A stretch of 29,553 nucleotides of DNA from a bacterium. GTDB lineage: Bacteria; Methylomirabilota; Methylomirabilia; CAVQYV01. Below, piece after piece: positions 2,439-29,553 of this stretch. The notes beneath the pieces are model-generated. The model had not been told where the DNA came from and searched no databases. It worked only from the letters and a program-made list of their open reading frames with translations. The stretch covers positions 1 through 29,553 of the forward strand of contig JAZDMQ010000069.1 in NCBI GenBank assembly GCA_043800755.1, in the 5' to 3' direction. Made by a program: the position numbers and the translations under genes. The number at the start of each line of letters is the position of its first letter. Positions within the stretch are counted from its first letter, which is position 1.

Positions 2439-2460
2439 CGCTCCATAACGCTCCTTCCGC

Positions 2461-2605: not shown

Positions 2606-2610
2606 GCTGT

Positions 2611-2745: not shown

Positions 2746-2774
2746 TTGTGAATCCCCCGATCAAATGCTATATT
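2746..2774 (+). promoter_or_regulatory. Putative sigma70 promoter (extended -10) for the cupin gene
   Basis: TTGTGA, 17 nt ending in TGC, TATATT. Confidence 0.4.
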
Positions 2775-2966
2775 GGCCCTATCGAGCGCATCAACTCGAG
2801 CTCCGCAGCCAGATCCACGAAATGGGAAAGAGAAAAGGGGGTGAGGAAGAGGGGCGTAGAAGTCCGCAGAAAAAGTGGGGGCTGGGTCTCCGACGAAGGC
2901 AGAGGCATGGCCTGTGGGGTTGCACCCGGAAGGTTTGAGGACCAAGAATTGAGGGGAGGTTATCCA

Positions 2967-3440: not shown

Positions 3441-3480
3441 ATGGAAGAGACGCCGGACCTGATGGCGACCTCGGCGGCTA

Positions 3481-4562: not shown

Positions 4563-4582
4563 TTCATGAGTTTCCTTTTCGC

Positions 4583-4612
4583 TTCATACCCCGATTTCCC
4601 CTAACCTGTCAA
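4583..4612 (-). promoter_or_regulatory. Putative sigma70 promoter for the comDE-like pair
   Basis: TTGACA, 18 nt, TATGAA. Confidence 0.4.
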
Positions 4613-4687
4613 GCAAAAAGCATGCTCGGAGCCCGCTCGGCAAGAGCAGGCCTTCACCAGGGTTGATTCCCATCCCTCCCGTTCTCT

Positions 4688-5413
4688 TCAATCGGCGCAC
4701 ATCACCAGGGACGAAAACCCTTCTCTCGTCAACCGACGCGCCAGGGTCTGGGCCTGGGGCTCGGAGGCGAAATCCCCCACCCTCACCCGATAGAATCTTT
4801 GATCGTCGGTCTGAAATAGCTTGATGGAGGCCGGGCCATACCGTTCCATCTTTTCCTTGAATCTTCTGGCATTCTCCTCCACCTGAAAGGACCCCACCTG
4901 GACGGTGAAGCGCCGCAGGGATAGCTCTCTCTCGTTCGGCCAGGCCTCCAGTCGAATCCAGGCCAGGCCCTTCTCCGCCATGTCGATCTCTTGGGCCGCC
5001 CGGTAGGAGAGGTCCAGGATGCGATTGGCGACGAAGGGACCCCGGTCGTTGATCCTCACCTGGACCGATCTGCCGTTTGCGGAGTTGGTCACCTGGACGA
5101 CTGTTCCCAGAGGCAAGGTGCGGTGGGCCGCGGTGAGGGCGTGCATGTCATAGACCTCCCCGCTGCTGGTCCGACGGCCATGAAACTCCTTCCCGTACCA
5201 GGAGGCATAGCCGACCTCGTGATAAATCTGGCCTTTCGTGGAGGCTGGCGAAGGTGGAGAGGGAGGCTGTCTGGCCGGCGCGCAGGAGAGGAGGAAGGAC
5301 AGCAAGGAAAGCAAGAGAATGAGCCATCTGAGGATCTGATGAGATCGGGGAGGGCCGAATGGAGGCCAGGGATGTTCATGGGCACCATGGCCGCCGCACC
5401 GACATCCGCACAT
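4688..5413 (-). CDS. rlpA: Septal ring lytic transglycosylase RlpA family lipoprotein with SPOR domain
   Basis: Lipobox LLSC; DPBB motifs ASWYG, TAAHRTLP, VRINDRGPF and LDLS; C-terminal SPOR (VQVGSF...YRVRVG). Confidence 0.92.
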   Translation of the reverse strand: MCGCRCGGHGAHEHPWPPFGPPRSHQILRWLILLLSLLSFLLSCAPARQPPSPPSPASTKGQIYHEVGYASWYGKEFHGRRTSSGEVYDMHALTAAHRTLPLGTVVQVTNSANGRSVQVRINDRGPFVANRILDLSYRAAQEIDMAEKGLAWIRLEAWPNERELSLRRFTVQVGSFQVEENARRFKEKMERYGPASIKLFQTDDQRFYRVRVGDFASEPQAQTLARRLTREGFSSLVMCAD

Positions 5414-7893: not shown

Positions 7894-8877
7894 TTACAAA
7901 AGGGCGGGGACCAGGCCTGCCTTTTGGTACCCCTCGATCGTTTTGGCCAGCCCTATTCGGAAGCGGGTAAACTCCAATCCCAATTCCCGGGCCGCCTTGG
8001 AGTGATCGACGCAGATGCCGTGCAGCATGGCCCGGACCTGATCCCGGGGAAGCCGGGGAGACTGGCCGGTGAAGAGGGAGCGAAGATGACCTGCCCAGGA
8101 AGCGGCCCAGACCAGGGGGACGGGAATCCGGCCGGGGATCTTGGTCAGTCCAGCGATCTCCGCCGCGGCAGAGAAGGCCTGCTCCAGGGTGAGGTTCTCT
8201 CCGGCCAGGATATAGCGCTCTCCGGACCTTCCCTTCTCTGCCGCCAGGAGGTGCCCCTTTATCATATCCTCGATGAAAATCAGGTTGATGACGCCCCCGA
8301 ACAATCCCGGCAGCCGACCGCGCAGGAAATCGAGGAAGACCTTGCCTGAGCCCCGGGTACGGCCAGGCCCGTAGGCAGAGGTAGGGTTGACCACCACCAC
8401 CTCCAGGCCCCTGGCCACCATCGCCAGCGCCTCCTTCTCCCCCAGATATTTGGAGCGCTCATAATCGGAGAGGAAATAGCCACGGTGGGCCGTCTCTTCA
8501 TTCCCGATCTGCCCCCTCTTCTCGCCAATCGTCACCGCCGAACTGGTGTGCAGCACCCGCCTCACCCCAGCCCTTAGGGCCGCCTCCAGCAGGTGTCGCA
8601 CCCCCTCCACATTGATCGCATAATAATCCTTCCGTCGAGGGATCCAAAAGCTATTGATGCCGGCCAGATGATAACAGAGCTCGACCCCTTGGAGGGCCGA
8701 GGACAAGGAGGCGCTATCCCGCAAATCCCCAGGGAAGACCTCTACGCCGAGGCAGCGGAGCCCCGAGTCGTCCTCCCCCGGGAGCACCAGGGCCCGGACT
8801 TGCCCTTTCCCTTTCAAGAGCTCCGGCAGAAGATGGCTGCCCACATAGCCCGTTGCGCCAGTCACTAAGATCTTCAA
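7894..8877 (-). CDS. NAD-dependent epimerase/dehydratase, extended SDR (HpnA/dihydroflavonol reductase-like)
   Basis: TGATGYVG, HLAG, TSS, catalytic YERSK, and NPTSAYGP; TTG start. Confidence 0.88.
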   Translation of the reverse strand: MKILVTGATGYVGSHLLPELLKGKGQVRALVLPGEDDSGLRCLGVEVFPGDLRDSASLSSALQGVELCYHLAGINSFWIPRRKDYYAINVEGVRHLLEAALRAGVRRVLHTSSAVTIGEKRGQIGNEETAHRGYFLSDYERSKYLGEKEALAMVARGLEVVVVNPTSAYGPGRTRGSGKVFLDFLRGRLPGLFGGVINLIFIEDMIKGHLLAAEKGRSGERYILAGENLTLEQAFSAAAEIAGLTKIPGRIPVPLVWAASWAGHLRSLFTGQSPRLPRDQVRAMLHGICVDHSKAARELGLEFTRFRIGLAKTIEGYQKAGLVPALL

Positions 8878-8901
8878 GCTGCTCCTTTGGCGACAGAGGC
8901 A

Positions 8902-9981
8902 TCACACATGGAATCGCACCGCGATGACATCCCCGTCCTGCACCAGATACTCCTTCCCCTCCAGCCGCAGCAGTCCCTTCTTACGGGCAGCGACCAGCGA
9001 TCCTGCCCCTTTCAGGTCCGCGAACGGGATCACCTCTGCCCGAATGAAGCCCCTCGCCAGGTCGGTGTGGATCGTCCCTGCGGCCTCCAACGCTGTGCTG
9101 CCCTGAGGGAGGGTCCAGGCCCTCACCTCTTCGTTCATATAGGTGAAGAAGGAGATGAGCCCCAGGAGGTCGTAGGAGGCCCGGATCAGGCGAGAGAGCG
9201 ACAGCTCGGCGATCCCCATCTCCCTCATAAACTCCCCCTGCTCCTCCTTCCCCAGTTGGGAGATCTCCAGCTCCAGTTTCGCGCATAGCTCTACCAGGGC
9301 CGTCTGCCGGTACTTCAGGAGATCCTGAAATCCCTCATGAAATCCTTCTCTTCGGGCCCATTGCTCCTCATCGAGGTTGAGGAGGAGGATGAGGGGCTTG
9401 GCCGTCAGCAATTGATAACCACGGAGTATGGACCACGACTCCCTCGGCATCGGATAGTCCCGCAGGGGCCTCCCGGCCCCTAACTGATCCTGGCAGAGCT
9501 TCAGGGTCGGAAACTCCCTCTCTTTATCCTCCTTCTTTCCCCGCTTGTAATCTAATTCGATCCTCTGCAGCCTCCTCTCAATAACCTCCAGATCGGCCAA
9601 TAGGAGTTCATCATCAATGAAGCCTACATCCCGGCGCGGCCCAATGCTTCCTTCGGCATGGGGCACCCGGGGATCGTCGAAGCAACGGACCACCTCCAGC
9701 AGCGCATCCATCTGTCGCAACTGCCCCAGCAGCTGGCTGTCCGTCTTGGCCGTCCCCTTGCTGAGGGGAGGCAAATCCTGATACTCTATCGTGGCCGAGA
9801 CGACCTTTTGGGGCTGAAACATTGCGACGAGCTCTTCCAAGCGGGGATCCGACACCTTGATGATCCCGATATGGGCCTCCGCCTTGGCCCCCGAGGACTT
9901 AGGGATCCCGCCTGAGATCGAGAGGAGGTCGAAGACCGTGGTCTTTCCTGCCTTGGGCAATCCTAAGATCCCTATCTTCAT
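8902..9981 (-). CDS. ychF: YchF/OLA1-family P-loop NTPase (divergent)
   Basis: MKIGILGLPKAGKTT, VVRCF, LLTAKP, and the C-terminal FFT...EVRAW...AGTIHTDLARGFIRAEV...RLEGKEYLVQDGD. Start placed at ATG 9981. Confidence 0.85.
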   Translation of the reverse strand: MKIGILGLPKAGKTTVFDLLSISGGIPKSSGAKAEAHIGIIKVSDPRLEELVAMFQPQKVVSATIEYQDLPPLSKGTAKTDSQLLGQLRQMDALLEVVRCFDDPRVPHAEGSIGPRRDVGFIDDELLLADLEVIERRLQRIELDYKRGKKEDKEREFPTLKLCQDQLGAGRPLRDYPMPRESWSILRGYQLLTAKPLILLLNLDEEQWARREGFHEGFQDLLKYRQTALVELCAKLELEISQLGKEEQGEFMREMGIAELSLSRLIRASYDLLGLISFFTYMNEEVRAWTLPQGSTALEAAGTIHTDLARGFIRAEVIPFADLKGAGSLVAARKKGLLRLEGKEYLVQDGDVIAVRFHV

Positions 9982-10108
9982 CGTCCCTTTTCCCTTTTCC
10001 CCCTCCGACGATTCATCCCCTCTGGACGCGTGTAACTTACCATCCCCCCTAAGTGGTGTCAAGGAGAAGGCGCCCCTGATTCCCGCTCCGAGGTTTCCCC
10101 TTTTCAGC

Positions 10109-10136
10109 TTGAATTTTTTCAGGTCTATGCTACCTT
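10109..10136 (+). promoter_or_regulatory. Putative extended -10 promoter placing the TSS at the mtaB start codon
   Basis: TTGAAT, 16 nt ending in TGC, TACCTT, then 7 nt to ATG 10144. Confidence 0.35.
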
Positions 10137-10143
10137 AAAGGCC

Positions 10144-11451
10144 ATGAAGGCGGCACTGACGACCCTCGGATGCAGGCTCAATCAAGCGGATACGGCGGCC
10201 CTCGCGGGGATCCTCAAAGAGGCGGGCTACCAGATTATCCCCTGGCAGGAGGTGGCTGATCTTTATCTGATCAATACCTGCACGGTGACTGCCGGCACTG
10301 ACCAGCAATCCCGGCAGGCTATCCGCCAGGCCCATCGGGCCAACCCCTCTGCCCTGATCATTGCCACCGGCTGCTACGCCCAGGTGGATCCCGGGGCCAT
10401 TGCCTCTATCGAAGGGGTGGATCTGGTCTTAGGGAACCGGGAAAAGCTGGATCTGAAGAGCTATCTGCAGGATCTGGCCAAGGGGGGACGGCCCCGGATC
10501 GCGGTGGGAGATATCTCCCAAGGCACCCTGTTCCAGGACCGGGGGGCCTGCGAGGAAACCCCTCGCACCCGTCCCCTCCTGAAGGTCCAGGAGGGATGCA
10601 GTGGAGAATGCACCTATTGCATTGTCCCTCGGGCTCGGGGGCCGGAGCGCAGCCTCCCTCCCGCCCAGGTGAAAGACAAGCTGGTGAGCCTATTGGCCCG
10701 AGGGTTCAAAGAGGTCGTCCTGACCGGCACCCGCCTGGGCGCCTACGGCCATGACCTGGCGCCGCGTGCTAACCTATCCGAACTCCTCAGTAACCTATTG
10801 CCCCTGCCCGGGACCTGGAGATTGAGGCTCAGCTCGTTGGAGCCCCACGACATCTCCCCGCACCTAGTCTTGGCCCTCCAGGGATCGCCCCGACTGTGTC
10901 GCCACCTTCATCTGCCACTCCAGAGCGGGGATGACGAGATCCTGGCCCTGATGGGCCGGACCGATCGGGTGGAGGGCTACCGAAGCCTGCTCCAGGACCT
11001 GGCCGCAGGACTGCCCGGCATCGGCCTGGGTGCGGACATCATTGTGGGATTCCCCAGCGAGACCAAAGAGCACTTCCTCCGCACCTTTCGCTTCTTGGAG
11101 GAAATGCCCCTGTCCTACCTTCATGTCTTCCCCTTCTCTGCCCGGCCAGGCACACCGGCGGCCACCCTGCCCCATGCCCCATCGCCCCAGGAGAAAAAGG
11201 ACCGGGCTCGCCAGCTTCGCTCCTTGGGCCGGGAGAAATCCTTGCAGTTTCGATCCGGGTTTATAGGAAGAGAGCTGGAGGTGGTCGTGCTCCGTAAGAG
11301 GGATCGACAGGGGAGGGGGTGGTTGGCCCTTTCCGATAACTACCTGCCCATCTTGATTCAGGACCGGGGAGAGGAGGGGATAGGTCAATTAGTCTCTATC
11401 GTGGTCGAGGGAATGGACCAGGATCTGCTCCTGGGTCGCCGGAAAGAATGA
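10144..11451 (+). CDS. mtaB: tRNA t6A37 methylthiotransferase MtaB
   Basis: UPF0004 cysteines TLGCRLN, NTCTVT and TGCYAQ; radical SAM motif CSGECTYC; HLHLPLQSG; C-terminal SDNYL. Confidence 0.92.
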   Translation: MKAALTTLGCRLNQADTAALAGILKEAGYQIIPWQEVADLYLINTCTVTAGTDQQSRQAIRQAHRANPSALIIATGCYAQVDPGAIASIEGVDLVLGNREKLDLKSYLQDLAKGGRPRIAVGDISQGTLFQDRGACEETPRTRPLLKVQEGCSGECTYCIVPRARGPERSLPPAQVKDKLVSLLARGFKEVVLTGTRLGAYGHDLAPRANLSELLSNLLPLPGTWRLRLSSLEPHDISPHLVLALQGSPRLCRHLHLPLQSGDDEILALMGRTDRVEGYRSLLQDLAAGLPGIGLGADIIVGFPSETKEHFLRTFRFLEEMPLSYLHVFPFSARPGTPAATLPHAPSPQEKKDRARQLRSLGREKSLQFRSGFIGRELEVVVLRKRDRQGRGWLALSDNYLPILIQDRGEEGIGQLVSIVVEGMDQDLLLGRRKE

Positions 11452-11480
11452 AGCCTCCCCCGGCGTACCGGAAGAGGCTT
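11451..11480. terminator. Hairpin between convergent mtaB and HU genes (probable terminator)
   Basis: AAGCCTC...CCGG-CGTA-CCGG...GAGGCTT; U-tracts are weak. Confidence 0.5.
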
Positions 11481-11528
11481 AATTCTACGAGGCCTAAGGA
11501 GAGGTCGAACTTGTCTTCGAGGGAACCC

Positions 11529-11801
11529 CTATTTGATCGCTGACTTGAGGGCTTTGCCAGCAGAAAACTTGGGAACTTTTTTGGCCTTCAGCATCATCTC
11601 TCTGCCGGTTTGAGGGTTTCGGCCTTTGCGGGCTTTACGCTCCCTGACGGAAAAGGTTCCAAATCCGACGAGGGTTACCTTTCCACCCTTGGAAAGGACT
11701 TTGCTGACCGCTTTGGTAAAGCTTCCCAAGGCCTTCTCAGCGGCGGCCTTGGTAACACCTGCATCCTTGGACATTTGGGCCACGAGATTCGCCTTCGTCA
11801 A
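11529..11801 (-). CDS. hup: DNA-binding protein HU
   Basis: VTLVGFGTFSVRERKARKGRNPQTG...PKFSAGKALK; TTG start with RBS AAAGGAGG. Confidence 0.96.
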   Translation of the reverse strand: MTKANLVAQMSKDAGVTKAAAEKALGSFTKAVSKVLSKGGKVTLVGFGTFSVRERKARKGRNPQTGREMMLKAKKVPKFSAGKALKSAIK

Positions 11802-18818: not shown

Positions 18819-20538
18819 ATGAGCTGGCGGAGCCGCGGACTTCTCGGAAATCTCGAATGCACCCTGATGCGGTTCCTCTACCGCTCCCTTGGCTACAGCG
18901 AGGAGGCGATGCGCGGCCCCCTCATTGGCATCGCCAATGCCTGGAATTCGATCAACCCGGGCCACTACAACCTGAAGGAAGTGGCGGAGGCCGCCCAGCG
19001 CGGGATCCTTCAGGCGGGAGGAATGCCCCTGGAATTCGGCACCATCGGCCCCTGCGACGGAATCGCCAGGGCCATGTGGGTATGCGCTATTTTTGCCTGC
19101 CCGCGACCTGATCGCCTCCGAGGTCGAGCTCATGGTCCAGGCCCATCAGCTGGATGGCGTGCTGCTCATTGGCTCCTGCGACAAGATCGTACCCGGGATG
19201 CTGATGGCGGCGGCCCGATTGGGTCTCCCTGCCATTCTGATCAACGGGGGACCGATGATGCCAGGGACGGTGCAAGGCCGCCACTGCGACTGCACGACAG
19301 TGGAGGTGGCTTACGCCCACTGGCGAAAACGCAAGATCTCTCGCCGCCAATTCGAGGAGATCGAGGAGGCGGCCTGTCCCACCCTGGGTTCCCGCGCCCA
19401 CATCGGAACCGCCAACACCATGGGCTGTGTGGCCGAGGCGTTCGGCCTTTCGCTCCCCGGAACGGCCCTGATACCGGCCTATATGGCTGCCCGTTTTCGG
19501 TCAGCAGAGGAGGCTGGCAGAAGGATCGTGGCCATAGTGAGGGAGGGTCTAACCACCAAGGAGATCCTGACGGCTGAGGCCCTCGAAAATGCCATCCGTC
19601 TGAGCCTGGCCATTGGGGGATCCACCAATTCTCTGCTCCACATCCCGGCGATCGCCCAGGAGGCAGGAGTCCAGATCGAAATGGAGGACTTTCGCCGCCT
19701 CTCGGAGGAAACCCCCCAACTGGCTTCCATCATGCCCGCCTCCGCTCACGATGTGGTCGACTTCTACGAGGCAGGAGGCGTTCCCTCTGTGCTCAAAGAG
19801 CTGAGCCCCCTCCTCCACCTGAATGCCGTAACGGTCACCGGCCGGAGCTGGAAGGAGAACCTGAGGGGAGTGAAGGGGGCAGACGGAAAGGTAATACGGC
19901 CCCTCCAGAGGCCCTTCTCTTCTACCGGAGGCCTCTCCATCCTCTATGAAAACCTGGCCCCCCATTCGGGTGTGGCCAAGCCGGCGGCCATTCCCCCGCA
20001 TATGATGAGATTTCGCGGTCAGGCCCGCATCTTCGATTTAGAGGAGGAAGCCTGCAAAGCTTTGATAGGGGGGAAGATCGGGGGAGGGGAGGTACTGGTC
20101 CTGCGCTACGAGGGACCCAAGGGAGGACCGGGAATGCGGGAGATGTTCCGGGCCTCCCAGCTCATCCGGGGCCTGGGCCTGGAGGAGAAGGTAGCCCTCA
20201 TCACGGACGGGCGGGTATCCGGCTCCAATCGTGGGCTCTTTGTGGGCCACATCTCTCCCGAGGCTATGGAGGGCGGTCCCCTGGCCATTGTGGAGGAGGG
20301 CGACCTGATCTCGATCGATATCCGGGCAGGACGGATCGACCTGGAGGTGCTGCCGGACGAAATCGATCATCGGCTGAAGGCGTGGAGACCTCCGCGGCCC
20401 AAAGTCACAAAGGGATATCTCGCCCTCTATGCCAAGCTGGCTGAGTCCGCCGCCCGCGGGGCGGTCTTGCGGGGAATCACGAATCCCACGCGGAAAGGGA
20501 GTCCAGACGGCAAGGGGATAGGGACGAAGAGGAGTTGA
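18819..20538 (+). pseudogene. ilvD: Dihydroxy-acid dehydratase (IlvD/Edd family), disrupted by two 1-nt deletions
   Basis: The N-terminus (IGIAN, PGH, CDGIA) is in the 18819 frame, GHVGMRY is in a second frame (~19069-19090), and LPARDLIA...CDK...TANT...GGSTN...[13 protein letters not shown]...GHISPEA is in the 19093 frame. Confidence 0.8.
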
Positions 20539-20568: not shown

Positions 20569-21402
20569 TCAGAACTCGGCGGGGAGGGAGAGGATCTGCT
20601 GGTAGGTGAAGACGGGTCCATCCTTGCAGACATAGATATTGCCGATGTTGCACCGCCCGCACTTTCCCAGCCCACACTTCATCTTCATCTCCAAGGTGGT
20701 GATCACCTGCTCCGGCAAAAAGCCGAGCTTGTCGGTTGCCTGCAGCACGAACTTGATCATGATGGGAGGGCCGCAGGTGATAAGTATTGCCTTTTCCGGC
20801 GAGGGGGAGATCTTTTCCAGGATGGCTGGCACAAAGCCGATATGTCCATCCCAGGTTTCATCCTCTCCACCTGGGTCCACGGTCCTAACCAATTTCACAT
20901 CGGAGCGGGACTCCCATTCTCTCAGCTCCGCCTTGTAGACCAGGTCCGCGATGCTCCTGGCCCCATAGAGGATCATGATCTCGGCAAAATCTCCCCGGGT
21001 GTCCAGGCAGTTCCAGATCAAAGATCGAAGCGGGGCCAGACCGATCCCCCCACCCACGAAGATGAGGTTTTTTCCCTTCATCTCCTCCAAAGGGAACCAG
21101 TTCCCATAAGGGCCTCGGAAGCCGAGGGTGTCCCCCACCTCTCGATCGTGAAGGGACTGGGTCACCTTGCCCACTCTCTTGAGGCTACACTCAATATACC
21201 CTTTGCGGGTGGGGGAGGAGGCAATGCAGAAGGTGGCCTCCCCCTCTCCGAATACCGAGAGCTGGCAGAATTGCCCCGCCTTGAAGGAGAAATTATGCGC
21301 CAGGGCCTCCTCTGAGAAGACCAGGCGGAAGGTCTTGATATCCGGGGTCTCCTCGATGATCTCCTCGGTCTTCACCAAATGTGGCTCATAAATGTGAGGC
21401 AT
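20569..21402 (-). CDS. flxA: FlxA-like FAD/NAD(P)-binding [2Fe-2S] subunit (AsrB/PyrK family)
   Basis: GQF, RGPYG, GGGIGLAP, CGPPIM, and CGLGKCGRC...CKDGPVF; last gene of the hdr-flx operon. Confidence 0.85.
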   Translation of the reverse strand: MPHIYEPHLVKTEEIIEETPDIKTFRLVFSEEALAHNFSFKAGQFCQLSVFGEGEATFCIASSPTRKGYIECSLKRVGKVTQSLHDREVGDTLGFRGPYGNWFPLEEMKGKNLIFVGGGIGLAPLRSLIWNCLDTRGDFAEIMILYGARSIADLVYKAELREWESRSDVKLVRTVDPGGEDETWDGHIGFVPAILEKISPSPEKAILITCGPPIMIKFVLQATDKLGFLPEQVITTLEMKMKCGLGKCGRCNIGNIYVCKDGPVFTYQQILSLPAEF

Positions 21403-21412
21403 GGTTCTCAGC

Positions 21413-22459
21413 TCAGCCCTTGGCGGACGCAGTTACCCTCTCCTTGATCTTGGCCAGAATCTCAGTAAGGTCAATGCCCACGGGGCAGACCTCAATACAA
21501 CGGCCACAGCCCACACAGGCGATGGGCCCAAAGCGGTCCACATAGTATTTGAATTTATGCATGATTCGTTGCCGGTAGCGACGGTCCTGGCTTCCTCGGG
21601 GCTGGTGGGCCGGCATCTGGGTAAAATGGCCAAAGGAGCAGGTATCCCAGATGCGGCGCCGGATTCCTCGCCAGAGGTTTCCCTCGTCCACGATATCGAA
21701 GCAGTGGCAGGTAGGGCACAGGTAATAGCAGGCTCCACATCCGATGCAGCGCCGGGAGATCTCCTCCCATAAGGGATCCTCAAAGTGCTCATCCAGCCAC
21801 TTCTTGATGCCTTCCATCTCCACCTGGCGCCTGATCTTTCCCCGGGCCTCCTTTTCCACCTCTGCTCGCCTCTTTTCATCATCCGGCCTAATCTCCTCCC
21901 AGAGATCCGAGAATTCTGCGAGCAATCGCTCGCCCTTCTCGCTGACGAACTCCGCGAATAGGCGCTTATCATCCAGGGGGGTCAGCGCGATATCACAGCC
22001 TTCCTTCCCCGTTGGGCTGTAGCCGAGGGAGGCGCAGAAGCAGGCCTCATCCGGCTCCTCACAGGCCAGGCAGATGACTAAGGTCTTCTCCCGCCGTGCC
22101 AGATAGAGCTCATCCTTCTCCTCCCAGGCGAAGACCTTATCGATAATGGGAAGGTAGGCGGCGTCGCAGGGCCTGACCCCATAAAGGACGGAGGGAATGG
22201 GATACTGGTCGAGGGGGTGGGTCTTTATCCCCTCTTTGCGGACCTCATAGGAGAGGAGAGGCTCATGGGGAGGAAGGAAAAACTCCTTGATGGAATGGGC
22301 AGAATTAGTATATTGCGGTGGAAGGTCCGAGGACGATTGGATCTCCCCGAAGAGGATGATGCCCTCGGATTCCCGGGGGCCATAGACCCGGAAGCCCTTC
22401 TCCCGCAGGCCCTGAATGAGTTTATCTCGGTTCTTAATGGAAAGGATCTTCTCTTTCAT
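21413..22459 (-). CDS. flxB: FlxB-like Fe-S subunit (AsrA family)
   Basis: GVRPCD, C...CFC, CIGCGAC...CPTCHCF, WDTC, HKF, and CVGCGRC...CP. Confidence 0.85.
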   Translation of the reverse strand: MKEKILSIKNRDKLIQGLREKGFRVYGPRESEGIILFGEIQSSSDLPPQYTNSAHSIKEFFLPPHEPLLSYEVRKEGIKTHPLDQYPIPSVLYGVRPCDAAYLPIIDKVFAWEEKDELYLARREKTLVICLACEEPDEACFCASLGYSPTGKEGCDIALTPLDDKRLFAEFVSEKGERLLAEFSDLWEEIRPDDEKRRAEVEKEARGKIRRQVEMEGIKKWLDEHFEDPLWEEISRRCIGCGACYYLCPTCHCFDIVDEGNLWRGIRRRIWDTCSFGHFTQMPAHQPRGSQDRRYRQRIMHKFKYYVDRFGPIACVGCGRCIEVCPVGIDLTEILAKIKERVTASAKG

Positions 22460-22462
22460 CTC

Positions 22463-23347
22463 TCAGCGAATGAAATCCTCATGATCTTTGGGATCAAAGG
22501 TGGCCAGCGCCGGCTCCATTTGGTAATTCATGCCGGCCACATACCCAAATTGCTCCTTGACTTCCCTGGCCATCTTCTGGTTCAGCAGCATGAGGGGAAT
22601 GTCCATGGGACAGGCCCTCTCGCACTCTCCGCAGCCGACGCACCTTCCGGTGAGATGAAAGGCTCGAATGATATTCCAAGCTAGGTTGCCACGAGCATGG
22701 GGGCTCTTCTCGATCCACTGGGGAATGGATTTCTCCGTGATGCACCGGTTGCAATAACAGAGGGGACAGGCCTGGCGGCAGGCATAGCACTTGATGCAGC
22801 GGGAGAGCTCCCCTTGCCAATACTCCCAACGCTCCTCCGGGGATCGGGATTCCAAATCCGCGATGACCTCATACGGGTCGGAAGAAGGCTCAGGCGAGTC
22901 TATCTTCTCTCCCACTAAGAAATCAAACTCCACCGGGGTATGGACCAGACAGACCTTGCATTTGGCCGACAGGGTCTCTTCATCAAGGTCTCCCTTTCCC
23001 TGATCCAGGGCCTTCTTGGAGAGGACGCCCCGACAGGCCAGTCCGATGATGTAGAGATCCTCCCTTCGGATCTGCTTCTCCTGGATGAGGACAAAGAGGG
23101 CCCGTGCATCGCAGCCCTTGGCAGTGATGGCCACTCGCCCCGGAACTTTCGTCTCCTTCCGCGTGAGGTAGACCGCCAGGTTGTTCACGCAAGCAGGGGT
23201 CCAGATGAGCTGAGAGGCCTCCTCCGGGGAGGTGATGAAGATGGGCCGGGCGCGGCTGCGCCTTGTACCCGCGCCATAACCGATGACCTGGGCCACCTCC
23301 TCCTTCTCCAACAACTCCTTCGCCTTATCCTGTAATTCCCTGCTCAT
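22463..23347 (-). CDS. flxC: FlxC-like Fe-S subunit
   Basis: KGCD, CIKCYACRQACPLCYC..C, and HLTGRCVGCGECERACP. Confidence 0.85.
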   Translation of the reverse strand: MSRELQDKAKELLEKEEVAQVIGYGAGTRRSRARPIFITSPEEASQLIWTPACVNNLAVYLTRKETKVPGRVAITAKGCDARALFVLIQEKQIRREDLYIIGLACRGVLSKKALDQGKGDLDEETLSAKCKVCLVHTPVEFDFLVGEKIDSPEPSSDPYEVIADLESRSPEERWEYWQGELSRCIKCYACRQACPLCYCNRCITEKSIPQWIEKSPHARGNLAWNIIRAFHLTGRCVGCGECERACPMDIPLMLLNQKMAREVKEQFGYVAGMNYQMEPALATFDPKDHEDFIR

Positions 23348-23368
23348 AGACTCGAAAAATCCTCAGCT

Positions 23369-23857
23369 CTATCCATCGCTGATCTTGCGGTATCCCTCAA
23401 ATGGACCCATTTCCCGAACCTGGCGGGTCACCTCATTCACCATCTTTGCCCACTTTGCCCCTTCCGCGGCCGAGACCCAAGAGAACTGAACTCGACGCAG
23501 ATCGATCCCCAGAAACTCCAGGAGCTTGCGAAAGGTGGCGAATCGCCGCCGGGCATGATAATTCCCGCTGGTATAATGGCAATCCCCCGGATGACAACCG
23601 GAGACCAGTACCCCATCCGAGCCCCGCTCGAACGCCTTCAGGATGAAAAGGGGATCGATTCTCCCTGTACAAGGGAGTTTGATGACACGAATCTGAGGAC
23701 TATGTTTCAAACGGCTGGTCCCAGCCAGGTCTGCCCCCGCATAGGTGCACCAGTTGCAGACGAAGGCGGTGATCTTTGGCTCCCAGCCATTGCCTCCCTC
23801 TTTACTCCCTGCCCCGCGGGTCAGACCCATCTCCGTCTCTCTTTCTTTGCTCTCCAT
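23369..23857 (-). CDS. flxD: MvhD/FlxD [2Fe-2S] adaptor subunit
   Basis: FVCNWCTYAGADLAG, PCTGR, GCHPGDCHY..GN, and WVSAAEG. Confidence 0.92.
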   Translation of the reverse strand: MESKERETEMGLTRGAGSKEGGNGWEPKITAFVCNWCTYAGADLAGTSRLKHSPQIRVIKLPCTGRIDPLFILKAFERGSDGVLVSGCHPGDCHYTSGNYHARRRFATFRKLLEFLGIDLRRVQFSWVSAAEGAKWAKMVNEVTRQVREMGPFEGYRKISDG

Positions 23858-23930
23858 ATATCCTCACCGAAGGAGTGCCCGCACCAGGCTCCTTCCGAAA
23901 TGATTTTACAAAAAAATATCCCTTAGCCCT

Positions 23931-25715
23931 CTAAAGGGCATTGATCTCCGCATACACCTGCTCGTCCAGAAACCCTTGGAGATCTATGGAGTTGGACCGG
24001 CAAATTGCCGCGCAGACCCCACATCCCTGACAGACGCCCTGATTCACGGAAGCAACGGTACGGACCAGGTTTCCCATCCGATCCCGGATTTCCTTAACCT
24101 CTATCGCCCCGTAGGGGCAAACCATCTGGCAATAGAAGCAGCCGACGCAGGATTCCTCATCCACCGTGGCCACGATCGGCTCGCGGCTCAATTCCTCGGC
24201 GGAGAATAGGCCCAGCACCTTGGAGGCGGCCGCACCGCCCTGGGCTACTGCCTCAGGGATATCCTTGGGCGCCTGGCAGGCTCCGGCCAGGAAGATCCCG
24301 GCGGTGTTAGTCTCCACTGGCCTCAGCTTGGGATGGGCCTCGGAAAGGAACTTATATTGGTCATAGGAGACGCCCAGCTTCTGCGCCAGTTTCTCGATCC
24401 CGGGCTGGGCGGTCATGGCGGTGGCCAGTACCACCAGATCGGCATCGATCTCTACCGAGGTCCCGGAAATCGTATCGGCTCCCCGCACCACCAATTTTCC
24501 GTTACGCTCAAAGATGCGGGAGACCCGGCCCCTCAGGTAGATGGCTCCATCCTCCTCCACCGCGCGGCGCACGAATTCCTCATAATTCTTCCCGCCCGAC
24601 CGGATATCGATGTAGAAGACATAGGCCTGACCGTCATGGACCTTATGTTTGTAAAGCATGGTGTGTTTGGCGACATACATGCAGCAGATCTTGGAGCAAT
24701 AGGAAATACCCTTGGAGAGGTCTCGCGATCCAACACACTGAATGAAGACCACGCTCTCCGGCACCTTCCCGTCGGAGGGTCTCTTCACTTCCCCCTCTGT
24801 GGGCCCTGAAGCGGAAAGGAGCCGCTCGAATTGCAGTCCACTGATCACATCTGGATACTTGCCGTAACCATATTCGCCGTAGCATTCGTCGGAAAGTAGC
24901 TCATAGCCGGTAGCAACTACTACGGCACCCACATCCTCCTCAATAATCTCGTCTTGTTGCGAATAGTCTATGGCATTAGCTGGACACACATCCTGGCAGA
25001 TCTTGCAGGTTCCCTTCTTGAAGTGCATACAGTTGTTTCTGTCGATTACTGGCTTGTTTGGAGCAGCCTGGGGGAATGGGATATAAATGCAGGGCCGGGA
25101 GACAAGACCCACCTCAAACTCCGATGTAATAGGCCTGGCAGCATGTCTTGAAATATCCTCCAACTTTATTGCCCCCGTTGGGCAGACAACCACACAAGAC
25201 CCGCAGGTGGTACACACTTCTGAATACTGATCAAATGGGGTGGCGATATCCCTCTTATCCCCCCTCCCCTTGATGCCTATAGCTGAAATGCCCAGACCGT
25301 CCTGACAGATCCTCGTACAGAGGCCGCAGAGGATACATCTGTTATCCTCTCCCTTCCTTCTTCCCCTGAATCGGGTCTCCCCAATTCCATACTTACCTGC
25401 CACCTCCCTTATCTCAGGGGAGGCTGGCGCCTCAGCCAGGAGCAGTTCTAAAATGAGCCTCCTCGCTCTCATCACCTTCTCAGAGGCGGTGTTTACAATC
25501 ATCCTCTCCCAGGCGGGGTAGGTACAGGCAGTATAAAGCTTCGACTTCTTGCCCCAGATGATTTCTACCAAGCACAATCTGCATGCGCCATACGGAGGCA
25601 GGGACTTGTGGTGACACAGAGTCGGTATGTCTATCCCGTGCTCTTTCGCTATCTCCAGGACGGTTCTGGATTCGTCCGCCTCGTACTCCTTACCATCCAT
25701 TATGAATGTACCCAC
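23931..25715 (-). CDS. Fusion: NuoG/HydA-like N-terminal Fe-S region + C-terminal half of heterodisulfide reductase HdrA
   Basis: GTG start with RBS GGAGGAG. N-terminal IPTLC...GACRLC...AC, CILCGLCTRIC and CTTCGSCVVVCP. Then HdrA motifs SEFEVGL..IYIPFPQA, VATG, QFERLLSASGPT, CVGSR, YCSKICCMY..K, GIFLAGACQAPKDI and a C-terminal 2x[4Fe-4S]. Confidence 0.92.
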   Translation of the reverse strand: MGTFIMDGKEYEADESRTVLEIAKEHGIDIPTLCHHKSLPPYGACRLCLVEIIWGKKSKLYTACTYPAWERMIVNTASEKVMRARRLILELLLAEAPASPEIREVAGKYGIGETRFRGRRKGEDNRCILCGLCTRICQDGLGISAIGIKGRGDKRDIATPFDQYSEVCTTCGSCVVVCPTGAIKLEDISRHAARPITSEFEVGLVSRPCIYIPFPQAAPNKPVIDRNNCMHFKKGTCKICQDVCPANAIDYSQQDEIIEEDVGAVVVATGYELLSDECYGEYGYGKYPDVISGLQFERLLSASGPTEGEVKRPSDGKVPESVVFIQCVGSRDLSKGISYCSKICCMYVAKHTMLYKHKVHDGQAYVFYIDIRSGGKNYEEFVRRAVEEDGAIYLRGRVSRIFERNGKLVVRGADTISGTSVEIDADLVVLATAMTAQPGIEKLAQKLGVSYDQYKFLSEAHPKLRPVETNTAGIFLAGACQAPKDIPEAVAQGGAAASKVLGLFSAEELSREPIVATVDEESCVGCFYCQMVCPYGAIEVKEIRDRMGNLVRTVASVNQGVCQGCGVCAAICRSNSIDLQGFLDEQVYAEINAL

Positions 25716-25724
25716 TTCTCCTCC

Positions 25725-27602
25725 CTACTCCCGAATCACCGCGTCAAACCTGCAAAGCTCTCGACAGATCCCACATTTTATGCACTTATCTTCTATTATG
25801 GTGTGCACCTGCTTCCTCTCGCCTTCAATGACCCCCTGCGGGCACTTCTTGAGACAGAGCATGCACCCGGTGCACTTCTCTCCATCTATGTAGTAGCGCA
25901 CCAGCGCCTTGCAGACACCAGCCGGACATCTCTTTTCTTTGACATGGGCTTCATACTCTTCCCGGAAATACCTCAGGGTAGAGAGAACAGGATTGGGCGC
26001 AGATCCGCCTAGCTGACACAGGGAAGCCTCAGAAACCACCCAGCATAGCTCTTCCAGGATAGCCAGGTCTTCCTCCCTTCCTCTACCTTCAGTTATCTCA
26101 GACAGTAGGTTATACATCTGGACCAGACCCTCACGACAGGCTGTGCATTTGCCGCATGATTCGTTCTTGAGGAAACCGGTAAAGTACCGAGCAATATCCA
26201 CCATGCAGTTTTCCTCGTCCATGACGATCATGCCGCCGGAACCCATCATGGACCCGGCTTCGGTCAGCCGCTCATAGTCCACGGGCAGATCAATCAAAGA
26301 CTCCGGGACACATCCCCCTGAAGGTCCTCCCGTCTGAACTGCCTTGAACTTTTTACCATCCTTAATACCACCGCCGATGTCATATACAATCTCTTTGAGG
26401 GTTATCCCCATGGGAACCTCAACCAAGCCGGTGTTGTTCACCTTACCCACCAGAGAAAAGATCTTTGTTCCCTTGCTCTTCTCTGTCCCGATGCTCGCGT
26501 ACCAATCTGCTCCCTTATTGATTATGAGGGGGACATTCGCCCAGGTTTCGACATTGTTTAGGTTGGAGGGGGAATCCCACAGCCCCTTCTCCACAGTATG
26601 GATATGCTTTGCACGGGGTTCACCAGGCTTACCCTCTATCGATGCCATCAAGGCAGTAGATTCGCCGCAGACGAAGGCGCCCCCGCCCCTGGCCATTTGC
26701 ACCTCAAAATTGAGCCCGGTTCCCAATATGTTCTTACCCAACAATCCTCGTTCCTCTGCCTGCTCCAGCGCAATCCTGAAATGCTCTACTGCCAGAGGGT
26801 ACTCCTGTCTGACATAGATATAACCTTCCTCCGACCCTATTGCGAAGGCACCGATTATCATCCCTTCCAGCACTGAGTGAGGATTGCCCTCCAGGACACT
26901 CCTGTCCATGTAGGCACCCGGGTCACCCTCGTCTGCATTGCATATGATGAACTTCCGTTCCCCTTTGGCCCTGCGGCACGTCTCCCACTTCTTACCGGTG
27001 TGAAACCCACCTCCGCCTCTTCCCCTCAACCCGGATGCCTTAATAATCTCTATAACCTGCTCGGGCTCCATGCCCTGGAGAACCTTTGCCAGGGCACTAT
27101 ATCCCCCTATGGCAATGTAGTCGTCGATCTGCCTGGGCTCAATCTCTTTGTTGCTGCCAAAGATAAGCGGCATTTGCTTCTTATAGAATGGAAGCTCATC
27201 TTCGTAGGTAAGCTTAGAGCCGGTTGCAGGATCGATGTAGAGCAAGTCTTCGATCACCTTACCGCCCATGACAGATTCTTCAAATATGCGTGGAATATCC
27301 TTGGCCTTCACCCGCGGATAGAAGATGCGCTGGGGCCTGACGATCAGTAACGGCCCTTGCTCGCAAAAACCGAGGCAGCCGGTCACCCTCACGGCCACCT
27401 GAGAAGACATGTCCCTCTTCTCGATCTCGTTCCTCACTGCCTCCACTACCTCCTGAGACTTGTTTGCATAGAGGCAGGAGGTCCCACTACAAATCACCAC
27501 CGTAGGCCTATTGGAGTCCCGAGAGGAGAATAACGCCTCCTGAAACCCGAAGAATTGATCTATGCTCTCCAATCTCTTTCCGTTGGTACCCATGGCGATC
27601 AC
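25725..27602 (-). CDS. NuoF/HydB/BfuB-like FMN/NADH-binding Fe-S flavoprotein
   Basis: N-terminal thioredoxin-like [2Fe-2S] (CSGTSC...GCLGFC), GLRGRGGGGF, CNADEGDPGAYMDR, GAFVCGESTAL, NNVET, GGPSGG, ESCGKCTAC...C, H..EKRCPAGVC, and two C-terminal CxxCxxCxxxC motifs. Confidence 0.93.
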   Translation of the reverse strand: MIAMGTNGKRLESIDQFFGFQEALFSSRDSNRPTVVICSGTSCLYANKSQEVVEAVRNEIEKRDMSSQVAVRVTGCLGFCEQGPLLIVRPQRIFYPRVKAKDIPRIFEESVMGGKVIEDLLYIDPATGSKLTYEDELPFYKKQMPLIFGSNKEIEPRQIDDYIAIGGYSALAKVLQGMEPEQVIEIIKASGLRGRGGGGFHTGKKWETCRRAKGERKFIICNADEGDPGAYMDRSVLEGNPHSVLEGMIIGAFAIGSEEGYIYVRQEYPLAVEHFRIALEQAEERGLLGKNILGTGLNFEVQMARGGGAFVCGESTALMASIEGKPGEPRAKHIHTVEKGLWDSPSNLNNVETWANVPLIINKGADWYASIGTEKSKGTKIFSLVGKVNNTGLVEVPMGITLKEIVYDIGGGIKDGKKFKAVQTGGPSGGCVPESLIDLPVDYERLTEAGSMMGSGGMIVMDEENCMVDIARYFTGFLKNESCGKCTACREGLVQMYNLLSEITEGRGREEDLAILEELCWVVSEASLCQLGGSAPNPVLSTLRYFREEYEAHVKEKRCPAGVCKALVRYYIDGEKCTGCMLCLKKCPQGVIEGERKQVHTIIEDKCIKCGICRELCRFDAVIRE

Positions 27603-28867
27603 TTATAGTGCGCAATCAGGGATTCGACCTTGCTCGGTCTCATGGAGTGGTAGTCGTTATCGACCACTACCACCGGTCCAAGAGCACAGCAGCCGACGCA
27701 GTTTACCGTTTCGAGGCTGAACTTCGAGTCCGCTGTGGTCTGTCCCGCCTTGATGCCCAGAACCCTTTCTACCCCTTCCAGCACCTGGCCGGCACCCCGT
27801 GCGTGGCAGGCCGTCCCGACACAAACCTTGATGGTATGTTCCCCCCTCGGCTCCAGACTGAAGGCGGTATAGAAAGTGGCCACATGGTATACCTGAGGCA
27901 AGGGAACACCGAGCCTTTGAGAGATGTATTTCAGAATATTCTCCGGAAGATAGCGGTATTGCAGATTGACATCCTGCAGCACCTGGATCAGAGATGAGGG
28001 GTAAGCCCCGTAGCGTGAGAGGACCGATTCCACCGCCTGAACCTCCTCCGCTGTCAACTCCTCCTTTGCATCCGGAAGAAGACGGATCTCGGGCTGGTTC
28101 CTGATCAGGCAGGCGCTCATGCAGTCGCCGCAGCCCGTGCACTTGTCCAGGTCAACCGATCTCGCCTTCTTTCTGATCTTGGCCTTGAAGTTACCCACAA
28201 AGCCAGAGATCTCCTCGAGTTCGGAATAGGTATAGAGCTTGATGTTGGGATGCTGCCGCACTTCAACCATCTTCGGGGTCAAGATGCACTGGGAACAATC
28301 GAGGGTAGGAAAAGTCTCAGAGAGCTGAGCCATGTGCCCGCCAATGGAGGGTTCTTTCTCCACCAGGACAACCTCTTTCCCACCTCCAGCAATATCCAGG
28401 GCTGTCTGGATACCGGCCACACCTCCTCCAATGACCAGGCAACGTTGGGTAACCGGCACTCGGATATCATAGAGGGGGGTATTTCGCTTCGCCTTCTCCA
28501 CCATCAGGCGCACCAGATCGATGGCCTTCTCGGTAGCCTCCTCCCGTTCGGAATGCACCCAGGAACACTGTTCCCGGATATTTGACATCTCCAATAGATA
28601 TGGGTTGACCCCGGCTTCATTGGCCGCACGCCGGAAGGTTACCTCGTGCATGCGGGGGGAGCAGGCGGCCACCACGATCCCGGTCAGTTTCTTCTCCTGG
28701 ATCGCCTCCTTGATCATGGATTGGCCGGGATCGGAGCACATATATTTGTATTCCACGGAGTGAGCTACCCCGGGGATCTTGGCCGATTCTTCGGCCACCC
28801 TCTTCACATCCACAGTGGAGGCAATATTTGCACCGCACCAGCAAACAAAGACTCCAATTCTTGCCAT
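27599..28867 (-). CDS. Fusion: N-terminal half of HdrA + NuoE/HydC-like [2Fe-2S] domain
   Basis: HdrA motifs RIGVFVCWCG, MCS, ACSP, NIREQCSWVH, IGGGVAG, ETFPTLDCSQC and CTGCGDCMSAC; then NuoE motifs LIQVLQ, VATFYTAF, CVGTAC and VNCVGCCALGP. Confidence 0.92.
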   Translation of the reverse strand: MARIGVFVCWCGANIASTVDVKRVAEESAKIPGVAHSVEYKYMCSDPGQSMIKEAIQEKKLTGIVVAACSPRMHEVTFRRAANEAGVNPYLLEMSNIREQCSWVHSEREEATEKAIDLVRLMVEKAKRNTPLYDIRVPVTQRCLVIGGGVAGIQTALDIAGGGKEVVLVEKEPSIGGHMAQLSETFPTLDCSQCILTPKMVEVRQHPNIKLYTYSELEEISGFVGNFKAKIRKKARSVDLDKCTGCGDCMSACLIRNQPEIRLLPDAKEELTAEEVQAVESVLSRYGAYPSSLIQVLQDVNLQYRYLPENILKYISQRLGVPLPQVYHVATFYTAFSLEPRGEHTIKVCVGTACHARGAGQVLEGVERVLGIKAGQTTADSKFSLETVNCVGCCALGPVVVVDNDYHSMRPSKVESLIAHYK

Positions 28868-28886
28868 GAGTAGATTCGCACCTCGC

Positions 28887-29553
28887 TCAGATCAAAGCTT
28901 TGGCTTTCAACAAAGGAATAGGATCAATGATATGCCGATTGAGCCCCAATTCACGGATTCCGGCCCCCAGGGCCAAACCCAAGATCTGCGTAAAATATAA
29001 GATAGGAAGGTTAAAACGGAGGCTGTAGGCCGCCTCTGTCTCCCTCTGCCGTAGATCGAGATTGGACTGGCACATAGGACAGGCCACCGCTACGCAGTCC
29101 GCTCCTCTCGCCTGTGCATCCGCCAGGATATCGCGGCAGAGGCGAAGGACGATCTCGGTTCGGGTCAGGGAAAGGCTCGCCCCGCAACATTCAATATTAT
29201 AAGGCCAATCAATGGTCTGGGCCCCTACCGCCGTCAATAGGTCATCCATGGAATGGGGCTGCTCCGGGTCATCGAATTGCATCACCTTGGGGGGTCGGAC
29301 CAGAAGGCACCCATAATAGGAGGCCACCTTGAGCCCCTCCATCTTCTTTGACACTTTGAGCCGGAGGCCCTCTACTCCCACATCCTCCAGGATGACCTCG
29401 AGGAGATGGCGGACCTTCACCTCCCCGCGATAGTCGATTTCCAAAAGCTGGTTAACCTGATTTCGAATCTCCTGATCTTCCGCCATTTCTTGATTTGCCG
29501 TCTTCAGGCGGTTATAGCAGGCGGCGCAACAGGTCAGGACCTGATCCCCGTTC
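28887..29553 (-). CDS. hdrB: Heterodisulfide reductase subunit B, 5' end outside the window
   Basis: The frame is open to the window edge (..VLTCCAACYNRLK..); CCG-domain motifs YYGC, ECCG, ACPMC and LYFTQ. The track start at 29486 is internal. Confidence 0.92.
   Translation of the reverse strand, partial: NGDQVLTCCAACYNRLKTANQEMAEDQEIRNQVNQLLEIDYRGEVKVRHLLEVILEDVGVEGLRLKVSKKMEGLKVASYYGCLLVRPPKVMQFDDPEQPHSMDDLLTAVGAQTIDWPYNIECCGASLSLTRTEIVLRLCRDILADAQARGADCVAVACPMCQSNLDLRQRETEAAYSLRFNLPILYFTQILGLALGAGIRELGLNRHIIDPIPLLKAKALI

Follow-up and report, generated by a model that had tools for sequence, protein, structure and literature searches.

What would it mean for an electron-bifurcating flavoprotein to carry a second candidate bifurcation module inside its own coding sequence? 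The question is raised by an operon on a 29,553-base contig (C27; GenBank JAZDMQ010000069.1) from the metagenome-assembled genome of an uncultured sediment anaerobe of the phylum Methylomirabilota (assembly GCA_043800755.1; 166 contigs, 2.43 Mb). The whole contig was analysed and is referred to below as the window. On its minus strand, from position 29552 down to 20569, eight reading frames are tightly packed, with intergenic gaps of −4 to 73 nt, and the operon comprises nine genes, hdrC to flxA, when an hdrC on a second contig is counted. The genes follow the order hdrC-hdrB-hdrA-flxD-flxC-flxB-flxA on one strand, with three additional reading-frame segments, nuoE, nuoF and a short nuoG, within hdrA. 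The split-HdrA Bfu operon is a real, conserved and apparently undescribed joining of two known bifurcation modules, for which the wiring predicted below is plausible.

The first evidence comes from the position of the break in HdrA. Gene identities were assigned by Pfam and NCBIfam profile searches of the reading frames in the window, which identified a 422-amino-acid protein, HdrA N-half::NuoE, and a 594-amino-acid protein, NuoG::HdrA C-half. Residues 3-256 of the former align to residues 5-259 of Methanothermococcus wolfeii HdrA (5ODC_A; E 7.6e-101); the latter matches 5ODC_A residues 246-647 (E 1.1e-103), with its HdrA-derived part beginning at about residue 260. The break lies between residues 259 and 260 of 5ODC_A, directly past the first CX2CX2CX3C motif. 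Two such Cys motifs sit between the two halves of the flavin fold, in a segment that we take to be the “inserted ferredoxin domain” of the 2017 structure, and the split puts one on each polypeptide. Because the insertion follows the first Cys motif, two polypeptides have to come together to restore both the inserted 2x[4Fe-4S] domain and the flavin domain.

The HdrA motifs are all retained. The HdrA portion of the 422-amino-acid protein contains the N-terminal cluster cysteines, the GxGxxG FAD motif, the CSQC pair and the first CX2CX2CX3C motif. The HdrA portion of the 594-amino-acid protein contains the second Cys motif of the inserted ferredoxin domain and what remains of the flavin domain, with K350 preserved. 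It also contains the C-terminal ferredoxin domain, both motifs of which are present, and the CCMY cluster motif is likewise kept. K350 aligns in an ungapped block with Lys409 of 5ODC_A, presumably the residue near the FAD N5, and both CCG sites of HdrB look intact. In 151 of the 160 related loci that were fetched, the two HdrA query pieces abut gaplessly on one contiguous gene, with 52-75% identity, and in canonical loci a contiguous hdrA is usually followed by flxDCBA. Since the pieces abut in this way, the operon can be described as a canonical hdrCBA-flxDCBA operon whose hdrA has taken up nuoE, nuoF and a short nuoG. Both fusion junctions are also present in independent assemblies, namely contigs L091, L011 and L177 and the RNA-library contigs of sequencing run X9. 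The protein collection's own gene call for the 594-amino-acid protein (P0011, 523 amino acids) begins at an internal Met and omits the NuoG [2Fe-2S] part; the GTG start at position 25715 is backed by relatives P0001-P0006 (594 amino acids) and by the family alignment.

The inserted proteins match the subunits of Bfu enzymes. From N to C terminus, NuoF carries thioredoxin-like [2Fe-2S], FMN/NAD(H), SLBB, NADH_4Fe-4S and 2x[4Fe-4S] ferredoxin domains, and its start overlaps the upstream gene by 4 nt. It matches HydB of a NiFe-Bfu hydrogenase (7T2R_B) with 774 bits over residues 32-622, ungapped end to end and with all Cys motifs aligned. WorB (9MQX_B), two further HydB proteins (8A6T_B and 7P5H_B) and the NfnABC subunit 9N5U_B also match end to end, the overall range being 774-669 bits. 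These matches include the N- and C-terminal iron-sulfur domains, which NuoF of complex I is without. The best solved match of the NuoE part is HydC/BfuC (8A6T_C), and that of the NuoG part (residues 5-187) is the short BfuA of WorABCSL (9MQX_A). The distal [4Fe-4S] cluster of NuoG would be bound at Cys168-178 of the 594-amino-acid protein. With the conserved BfuB domains, the BfuC [2Fe-2S] protein and BfuA all found, the NuoE, NuoF and NuoG parts by sequence make up a full Bfu core as defined by Schut et al. 2022, unusual in that BfuA and BfuC are fusions. All three parts align with those of NiFe-HydABCSL (7T2R), HydABC (8A6T/7P5H), NfnABC (9N5U) and WorABCSL (9MQX), but the “third substrate” module attached to BfuA is here the entire Hdr-Flx system instead of a hydrogenase, WOR or an NADPH flavoprotein, and BfuA and BfuC are covalently fused to that system.

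The remaining genes of the operon encode a complete FlxDCBA set. FlxA consists of FAD_binding_6, NAD_binding_1 and a C-terminal DHODB-type [2Fe-2S] domain; the matches of FlxA, FlxB and FlxD exceed the curated Pfam/NCBIfam cut-offs, and FlxC is 36-50% identical to FlxC of canonical hdr-flx loci. The original prediction, made from the letters of the window without database searches, had proposed a complete flxDCBA with an FAD/NAD site in FlxA, and the domain matches bear this out. It had described NuoF as wired into HdrA; NuoE and NuoG are indeed covalently fused to the HdrA halves, but NuoF itself is encoded by a separate gene. Two NAD(H) ports and two potential bifurcation sites had also been proposed, in agreement with the complete FlxDCBA, the NuoE/F/G set and the full HdrA motifs, so that the operon holds two predicted NAD(P)H-type sites and two candidate bifurcation modules. 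The suggested placement of the Bfu core at the low-potential exit of HdrA fits a break that directly follows the first Cys motif of the inserted ferredoxin domain. No subunit of a hydrogenase or formate dehydrogenase was found in the window, as had been said of catalytic subunits in its visible part, nor directly upstream of hdrC on the second contig, C138, where donor enzymes had been suggested as worth seeking; hdrC itself, sought for the same reason, was found on both C138 and L091.

The start of the operon was reconstructed from these two contigs, the 5' end of hdrB being lost at the edge of C27. L091, a metagenome contig that is 99.28% identical to the window across 15,621 bases, contains a complete hdrB (290 amino acids, 796-1668) preceded by hdrC (189 amino acids, 230-799), and extends 229 bases further upstream. 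C138, from the same genome as the window, holds hdrC and the first ~115 codons of hdrB. Its nucleotide identity to L091 is only 93.7%, and for this reason C138 may be sister-strain DNA binned into the same genome. Coordinates of the genes in the window are given in Table 1.

Table 1. Genes and protein portions of the split-hdrA operon, in order of transcription, with positions in the window.
Feature	Position	Strand	Basis of assignment
hdrB, last 221 codons	28887..29552	-	CCG domain; TIGR03288 positions 71-288
hdrA N-half::nuoE, 422 aa	27599..28867	-	HdrA2 profile positions 1-258 + NuoE/HoxE
HdrA portion of 422-aa protein	aa 1-~262, nt 28867-28082	-	Residues 3-258 match profile 1-258
NuoE/BfuC [2Fe-2S] portion of 422-aa protein	aa ~270-422, nt 28060-27602	-	PF01257, E 3e-46
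nuoF/bfuB, 625 aa	25725..27602	-	Pfam domains; match to 7T2R_B
Short nuoG/bfuA::hdrA C-half, 594 aa	23931..25715	-	NuoG/HoxU-like + HdrA2 profile positions 254-639
NuoG portion of 594-aa protein	aa 1-~190, nt 25715-25146	-	Fer2_4 [2Fe-2S] + two 4Fe-4S motifs
HdrA portion of 594-aa protein	aa 196-594, nt 25130-23934	-	Residues 193-593 match profile 254-639
flxD, MvhD-like [2Fe-2S] adaptor, 162 aa	23369..23857	-	PF02662, E 1.4e-52; VhuD
flxC, 4Fe-4S dicluster protein, 294 aa	22463..23347	-	Ferredoxin domains over cut-off
flxB, AsrA/sulfhydrogenase-beta-like iron-sulfur protein, 348 aa	21413..22459	-	PF17179; ShyB/HydB/AsrA
flxA, 277 aa, final gene	20569..21402	-	PF00970, PF00175, PF10418; AsrB/HydG-like

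Additional evidence came from related loci in other phyla. Two loci from Planctomycetota, L011 and L177, repeat the full nine-gene order hdrC-hdrB-A'::E-F-G::A''-flxD-C-B-A, and two more from this phylum, L176 and L178, have split loci that are truncated at contig ends. In L181, from Chloroflexota, Flx gives way to mvhD, mvhG, mvhA and a maturation protease gene, which come after the split HdrA and Bfu genes; nuoE is a separate frame in this locus, and NuoF carries a GltD-like domain (1055 amino acids, 8432-11599). The donor port appears swappable, with Flx in the window and Mvh in L181. A second Chloroflexota locus, L073, has a contiguous HdrA, and nuoE, nuoF and a 208-amino-acid nuoG lie between flxC and flxB. 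The HdrA of L073 is sister to that of the split-type protein P0110, with a support of 100 in the Shimodaira-Hasegawa-like approximate likelihood ratio test (SH-aLRT). The recurrence of a Bfu core, Hdr and an MvhD-linked donor in different gene arrangements was read as evidence for a joint complex.

Several other loci were noted in the course of this comparison. L062 was considered as a third Flx-Bfu arrangement and rejected, since its nuoEFG is followed by genes for hydrogenase small and large subunits and represents a neighbouring Hox-type hydrogenase. In L141, the nuoE and nuoF genes are 5.5 kb distant. The Thermodesulfobacteriota genome ORM2a has two loci of interest: L180 (8259-12661) encodes an HdrA N-half with an in-frame TGA, a NuoG::HdrA C-half and MvhD, with neither nuoE nor nuoF, and L179 (6291-14257) encodes HdrA(153-261)::NuoE, NuoF and then NuoG::HdrA-C::HdrA-N::HdrA-C.

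A model for how the operon might work can be framed by comparison with FlxABCD-HdrABC (Flox-Hdr), which Ramos et al. reportedly described in 2015 for Desulfovibrio vulgaris and D. alaskensis. The likeness extends to gene order, to sequence (the HdrA halves are 52-75% and FlxA is 39-64% identical to proteins of the canonical and related hdr-flx loci that were fetched) and to the proposed logic of NADH oxidation at FlxA and bifurcation at the HdrA flavin, with ferredoxin and a disulfide as acceptors. The difference is that hdrA is here divided within its inserted ferredoxin domain, with NuoE, NuoF and a short NuoG accommodated at the break, so that there is no single contiguous HdrA polypeptide as in FlxABCD-HdrABC, and the exit to free ferredoxin appears to be replaced by a second NAD(H)/ferredoxin module. 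The operon also resembles MvhAGD-HdrABC of methanogens (5ODC, 8RVU) in the match of both HdrA halves to 5ODC_A and in its MvhD-like FlxD, but it contains no hydrogenase, in contrast to the pairing of split HdrA and Bfu with MvhDGA in L181; its HdrA is divided, and a bacterium would not be expected to have CoM-S-S-CoB.

The reading that we favour, with a probability of roughly 0.45, is that the nine genes encode one soluble complex, an Flx-Hdr with a built-in Bfu. FlxA would oxidise NAD(P)H, and electrons would pass through FlxB, FlxC, FlxD and the C-terminal ferredoxin domain of HdrA to the HdrA FAD. Bifurcation at this FAD would send the high-potential electron via HdrC to HdrB, where a disulfide other than DsrC would be reduced, while the low-potential electron would exit via the rebuilt inserted ferredoxin domain into the NuoG clusters, in place of free ferredoxin. 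The BfuBC core (NuoF/NuoE) would then bifurcate a second time, to NAD+ and ferredoxin, as Bfu hydrogenases do with electrons from H2. The net reaction would be approximately 3 NAD(P)H + 2 RSSR + 2 Fd(ox) -> 3 NAD(P)+ + 4 RSH + 2 Fd(red), so that the predicted NAD(P)H : Fd : RSSR ratio is about 3:2:2, compared with 2:2:1 for single-stage Flx-Hdr. For the tandem, the ferredoxin potential would be E = 3·E(NADH) - 2·E(RSSR), as compared with 2·E(NADH) - E(RSSR) for a single stage. By this bookkeeping the second stage would gain reducing power at the cost of one extra disulfide per ferredoxin pair (two vs one), and NADH could thereby reach a more negative ferredoxin potential than with a single-stage Flx-Hdr.

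Two structural observations from a preprint by Appel et al. 2026 (10.64898/2026.04.10.717634) bear on this model. The preprint describes the inserted ferredoxin domain of HdrA as a low-potential output, and it places the N-terminal helix bundle of the NuoE-like BamG in contact with the NuoG-like BamI. By analogy with the BamG-BamI contact, the two fusion points in the window would lie close together, as insertion into one loop requires.

The same work provides the basis for an alternative model in which Bfu serves as an input. Class II benzoyl-CoA reductase (BCRII; Bam[(BC)2DEFGHI]2) of Geobacter metallireducens shares with the operon a HydBC/Bfu module whose BfuA is short, carrying one [2Fe-2S] and two [4Fe-4S] clusters; a flavin of the HdrA type, an MvhD-like adaptor and an output resembling HdrBC belong to the same complex. 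Bfu in BCRII feeds the input side, along a path formed by BamI, the C-terminal ferredoxin domain and BamF. BamE consists of two HdrA units fused as a dimer, the distal cluster of BamD is degenerate, and the low-potential branch ends at a tungsten enzyme. In the operon, Bfu is instead spliced into the low-potential branch, Flx is on the MvhD side, there is one HdrA, in two pieces, and HdrB and HdrC are distinct proteins, with both CCG motifs present. The fused double-HdrA BamE, the fused HdrBC-like BamD and the tungsten proteins BamB/BamC thus have no counterpart in it; no AOR-type (aldehyde ferredoxin oxidoreductase-type) gene was found in the operon or the window, the remaining genome not having been searched for BamB. 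If the operon worked like BCRII, NuoF/NuoE would confurcate NADH and reduced ferredoxin, and NuoG would feed the HdrA flavin at about −400 mV. Flx would serve either as an additional, alternative input or as an output that reduces NAD(P)+, and the complex would consume ferredoxin, for instance to drive the reduction at HdrB of a sulfur compound that is difficult to reduce.

This input model draws on the sole solved precedent, for which reduction of BamGHI by NADH and reduced ferredoxin was measured (10.64898/2026.04.10.717634). The same order was proposed for Bam-Bfu by Schut et al. 2022 (PMC9304861), where Bfu enzymes are called reversible. Nevertheless, we consider the input model unlikely for the window. 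BamI contacts the C-terminal ferredoxin-like domain in BCRII, according to the preprint, but the module in the operon is spliced into the inserted domain, the low-potential output. An input function would also leave HdrA without a low-potential exit. Moreover, the MvhD-attached unit is interchangeable between an NAD(P)H module and H2-oxidising Mvh, which fits a donor position for Flx.

In a second alternative, the wiring is that of the favoured tandem model, but FlxA and NuoF work on different nucleotides (NADPH and NADH, or the reverse), making the complex a disulfide-driven transhydrogenase or redox balancer. Such an enzyme would couple the NAD, NADP and ferredoxin pools, as Nfn or Stn does, with disulfide reduction as an additional driving force. 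The two nicotinamide sites are separate and have unrelated folds, as this model would need. NuoF in the window reads CGEST at residues ~311-316 (window 26640-26660 region), with Ser in the position of the second Glu of CGEET, the form seen in six other split-type loci; we take that Glu to disfavour NADPH in E. coli NuoF. NuoF::GltD-like proteins with an NADPH-type domain, in L181 and on contig C67 of the source genome, tie Bfu here often to a second nucleotide site. CGEST and a following EPRAK motif are common to NuoF of the window, its paralogue on contig C53 and NuoF of L073; this pattern, set against CGEET, hints at two NuoF subtypes. The motif was dropped as a criterion for NADH versus NADPH, since WorB (9MQX_B) has GESS at the same place and WorABCSL is reported to reduce NAD. 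For FlxA, no sequence feature has been shown to favour NADPH, and the Mvh-linked relatives are without a second nucleotide site at the donor position. A transhydrogenase is a further improbable reading of the operon.

The distribution of the fusion speaks to whether the proteins work together at all. Relatives were drawn from a collection of 5.8 billion proteins, and the best 120 matches were examined. The NuoG::HdrA architecture is found in 118 of these at 52-99% identity, five of them with MvhD fused as well, and the other two are fragments. The source names of the matches include NC10 (85% identity), KSB1, Actinobacteria, Phycisphaerae, Nitrospiraceae, Kiritimatiellaeota, Chloroflexota and [Eubacterium] cellulosolvens. 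Among the best 150 representatives of clusters at 50% identity, 13 have NuoG::HdrA. A different form is seen in 77 of these 150, which are ~1000-1500 amino acids long with the C-part of HdrA followed by the N-part; such permuted or tandem HdrA forms far outnumber the NuoG fusions among the same representatives.

A survey by phylum, with the HdrA-N::NuoE protein as the query against sampled species genomes, showed the split design to be rare, with six occurrences in 1855 species genomes overall. In the window's own phylum it is present in one of 251 species genomes, the source genome itself, and a contiguous HdrA is present in 11 others. The remaining occurrences are in Planctomycetota (4/401) and Chloroflexota (1/401). 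At the strict threshold used (E <= 1e-120), the samples from Actinomycetota and from the phylum of Christensenella gave no split forms (0/401 each), a result that speaks for these samples at that cut-off and is no evidence that the phyla are devoid of them. None was seen in 30 closer relatives, a tally that includes the unpublished genome G030, on which no other result depends. In a tree of the HdrA C-part (76 chosen rows, 31 split and 45 contiguous), split forms are scattered among contiguous ones; parsimony requires nine state changes, of which at least five are forced by well-supported branches, with the caution that this was a quick maximum-likelihood tree (LG+G4) with SH-aLRT support only. 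Although such patchiness would fit a reading in which Flx, Hdr and Nuo are separate enzymes of neighbouring genes, or in which a split hdrA is decaying, this explanation is very improbable, because NuoE and NuoG are translationally fused to HdrA halves neither of which alone binds FAD or builds the ferredoxin domain, the cofactor motifs are all intact, the fusion is kept in nearly all of the best relatives, and the same nine genes recur in Planctomycetota.

While these data are consistent with a tandem complex, several points weigh against that interpretation. Fusion topology by itself does not establish which clusters lie within electron-transfer distance. The only solved machine that joins Bfu to HdrA, BCRII, has Bfu on its input side, confurcating NADH and reduced ferredoxin. 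NADH oxidation at FlxA together with NAD+ reduction at NuoF looks partly circular unless the nucleotides differ, and the contrast of CGEST with CGEET does not settle nucleotide specificity, given GESS in WorB. The original prediction had named DsrC, the acceptor proposed for Desulfovibrio, as a candidate disulfide; the source genome, which is rated 100% complete with 0.06% contamination, gave no match to the DsrC/TusE family, which counts against that candidate and separates this operon from Flox-Hdr.

Interpretation of the RNA-library data is likewise confounded. Contigs from run X9 cover the operon in all 30 of its bins and run across both fusion junctions. All four sequencing runs that were compared consist of contigs, which show no transcript ends, strand or expression level, and one RNA-library contig bridges the convergent gene ends of flxA and ilvD, such that DNA carry-over is possible. 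Because the data are contigs and RNA libraries may contain DNA, the coverage is only consistent with expression.

The concept of coupling these modules is already in print. Coupling of Bfu to HdrA in BCRII was proposed by Schut 2022 (PMC9304861) and shown by the Appel et al. 2026 preprint (10.64898/2026.04.10.717634), and a 2013 genome paper reports that nuoEFG genes of Desulfotignum phosphitoxidans share units with hdrA and mvhD. Full-text searches of the literature turned up no account of nuoEFG splitting hdrA, whether Flx was present or absent, and this feature is apparently undescribed. A more far-reaching proposal is that the family represents a two-stage hard-wired cascade, its order reversed relative to benzoyl-CoA reductase, with an exchangeable donor port and with Bfu either fused or free (as in L073), a “gearbox” spread by gene transfer. 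We regard this extended proposal as possible but doubtful.

The surroundings of the operon differ from its contents. At its 3' end, ilvD converges on flxA at a distance of 30 nt, and the remainder of the window consists of unrelated housekeeping genes. In the window, ilvD (18819-20538, plus strand) is split into two overlapping frames near 19090, and in L091 (10017-11821) it breaks elsewhere, at about window position 19765; breaks at different places suggest assembly errors or strain-level decay. On C138, the genes beyond hdrC lie on the opposite strand and encode a URO-D family protein, a DUF72 protein and a PEP-mutase-like protein. The URO-D family protein, of 387 amino acids (1566-2729, plus strand, in L182, the locus on C138), is divergent from hdrC; in anaerobes, corrinoid methyltransferases are frequent members of the family. 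In L011, a very long frame (983-5068, plus strand) with matches to multihaem cytochrome c (c7, c3, NapC/NirT) lies directly upstream of hdrC. It was noticed in L011 only, and the frame call is uncertain, the DNA being apparently GC-rich.

The genome as a whole suggests a use for reduced ferredoxin. It encodes carbon monoxide dehydrogenase/acetyl-CoA synthase (CODH/ACS), which points to an anaerobe with the Wood-Ljungdahl pathway, a consumer of reduced ferredoxin. It also has a sulfhydrogenase-type [NiFe] hydrogenase and a [NiFeSe] hydrogenase, the hydrogenases being on contigs C135 and C142. On C53 (L171), a second, free-standing nuoE-nuoF-short nuoG set (nuoG of 271 amino acids; NuoF with CGEST) directly adjoins acsB, acsC and acsV, and possibly represents a Bfu enzyme associated with the Wood-Ljungdahl pathway. 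A second Hdr cluster, on C93 (L172), comprises hdrC, hdrB, a 1216-amino-acid HdrA into which a GltD/NfnB-like NAD(P)-binding region is inserted, mvhD and a CCG protein resembling HdrD/TfrB. On C67 (L173), the NuoF::GltD-like fusion (1019 amino acids) lies beside NuoE and a formate dehydrogenase alpha subunit, in a Stn/Hyl-like set. DNA nearly identical to that of the window was found in 18 runs, which belong to 17 sediment and soil studies.

NADH has a potential of about −280 to −320 mV, and how it drives ferredoxin reduction without H2 or a strong oxidant is a standing problem, as are the substrate and stoichiometry of Flx-Hdr outside sulfate reducers. The split operon provides a natural fusion that pins the Bfu module to a defined point of HdrA, and with it a concrete and testable wiring diagram linking two unrelated bifurcation mechanisms. 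It would be a second architecture beside benzoyl-CoA reductase, with an apparently opposite order of modules, and the fusions should ease co-purification and cryo-electron microscopy. If the cascade is true, NADH and a modest disulfide oxidant would charge ferredoxin beyond what a single-stage Flx-Hdr achieves, while half of the boosted electrons would return to NAD(P)+, and a modular redox unit would have spread by gene transfer over many anaerobic phyla. The family is widespread in sediment and soil metagenomes, and present also in RNA-library assemblies, and it may matter for carbon fixation and fermentation energetics of uncultured anaerobes.

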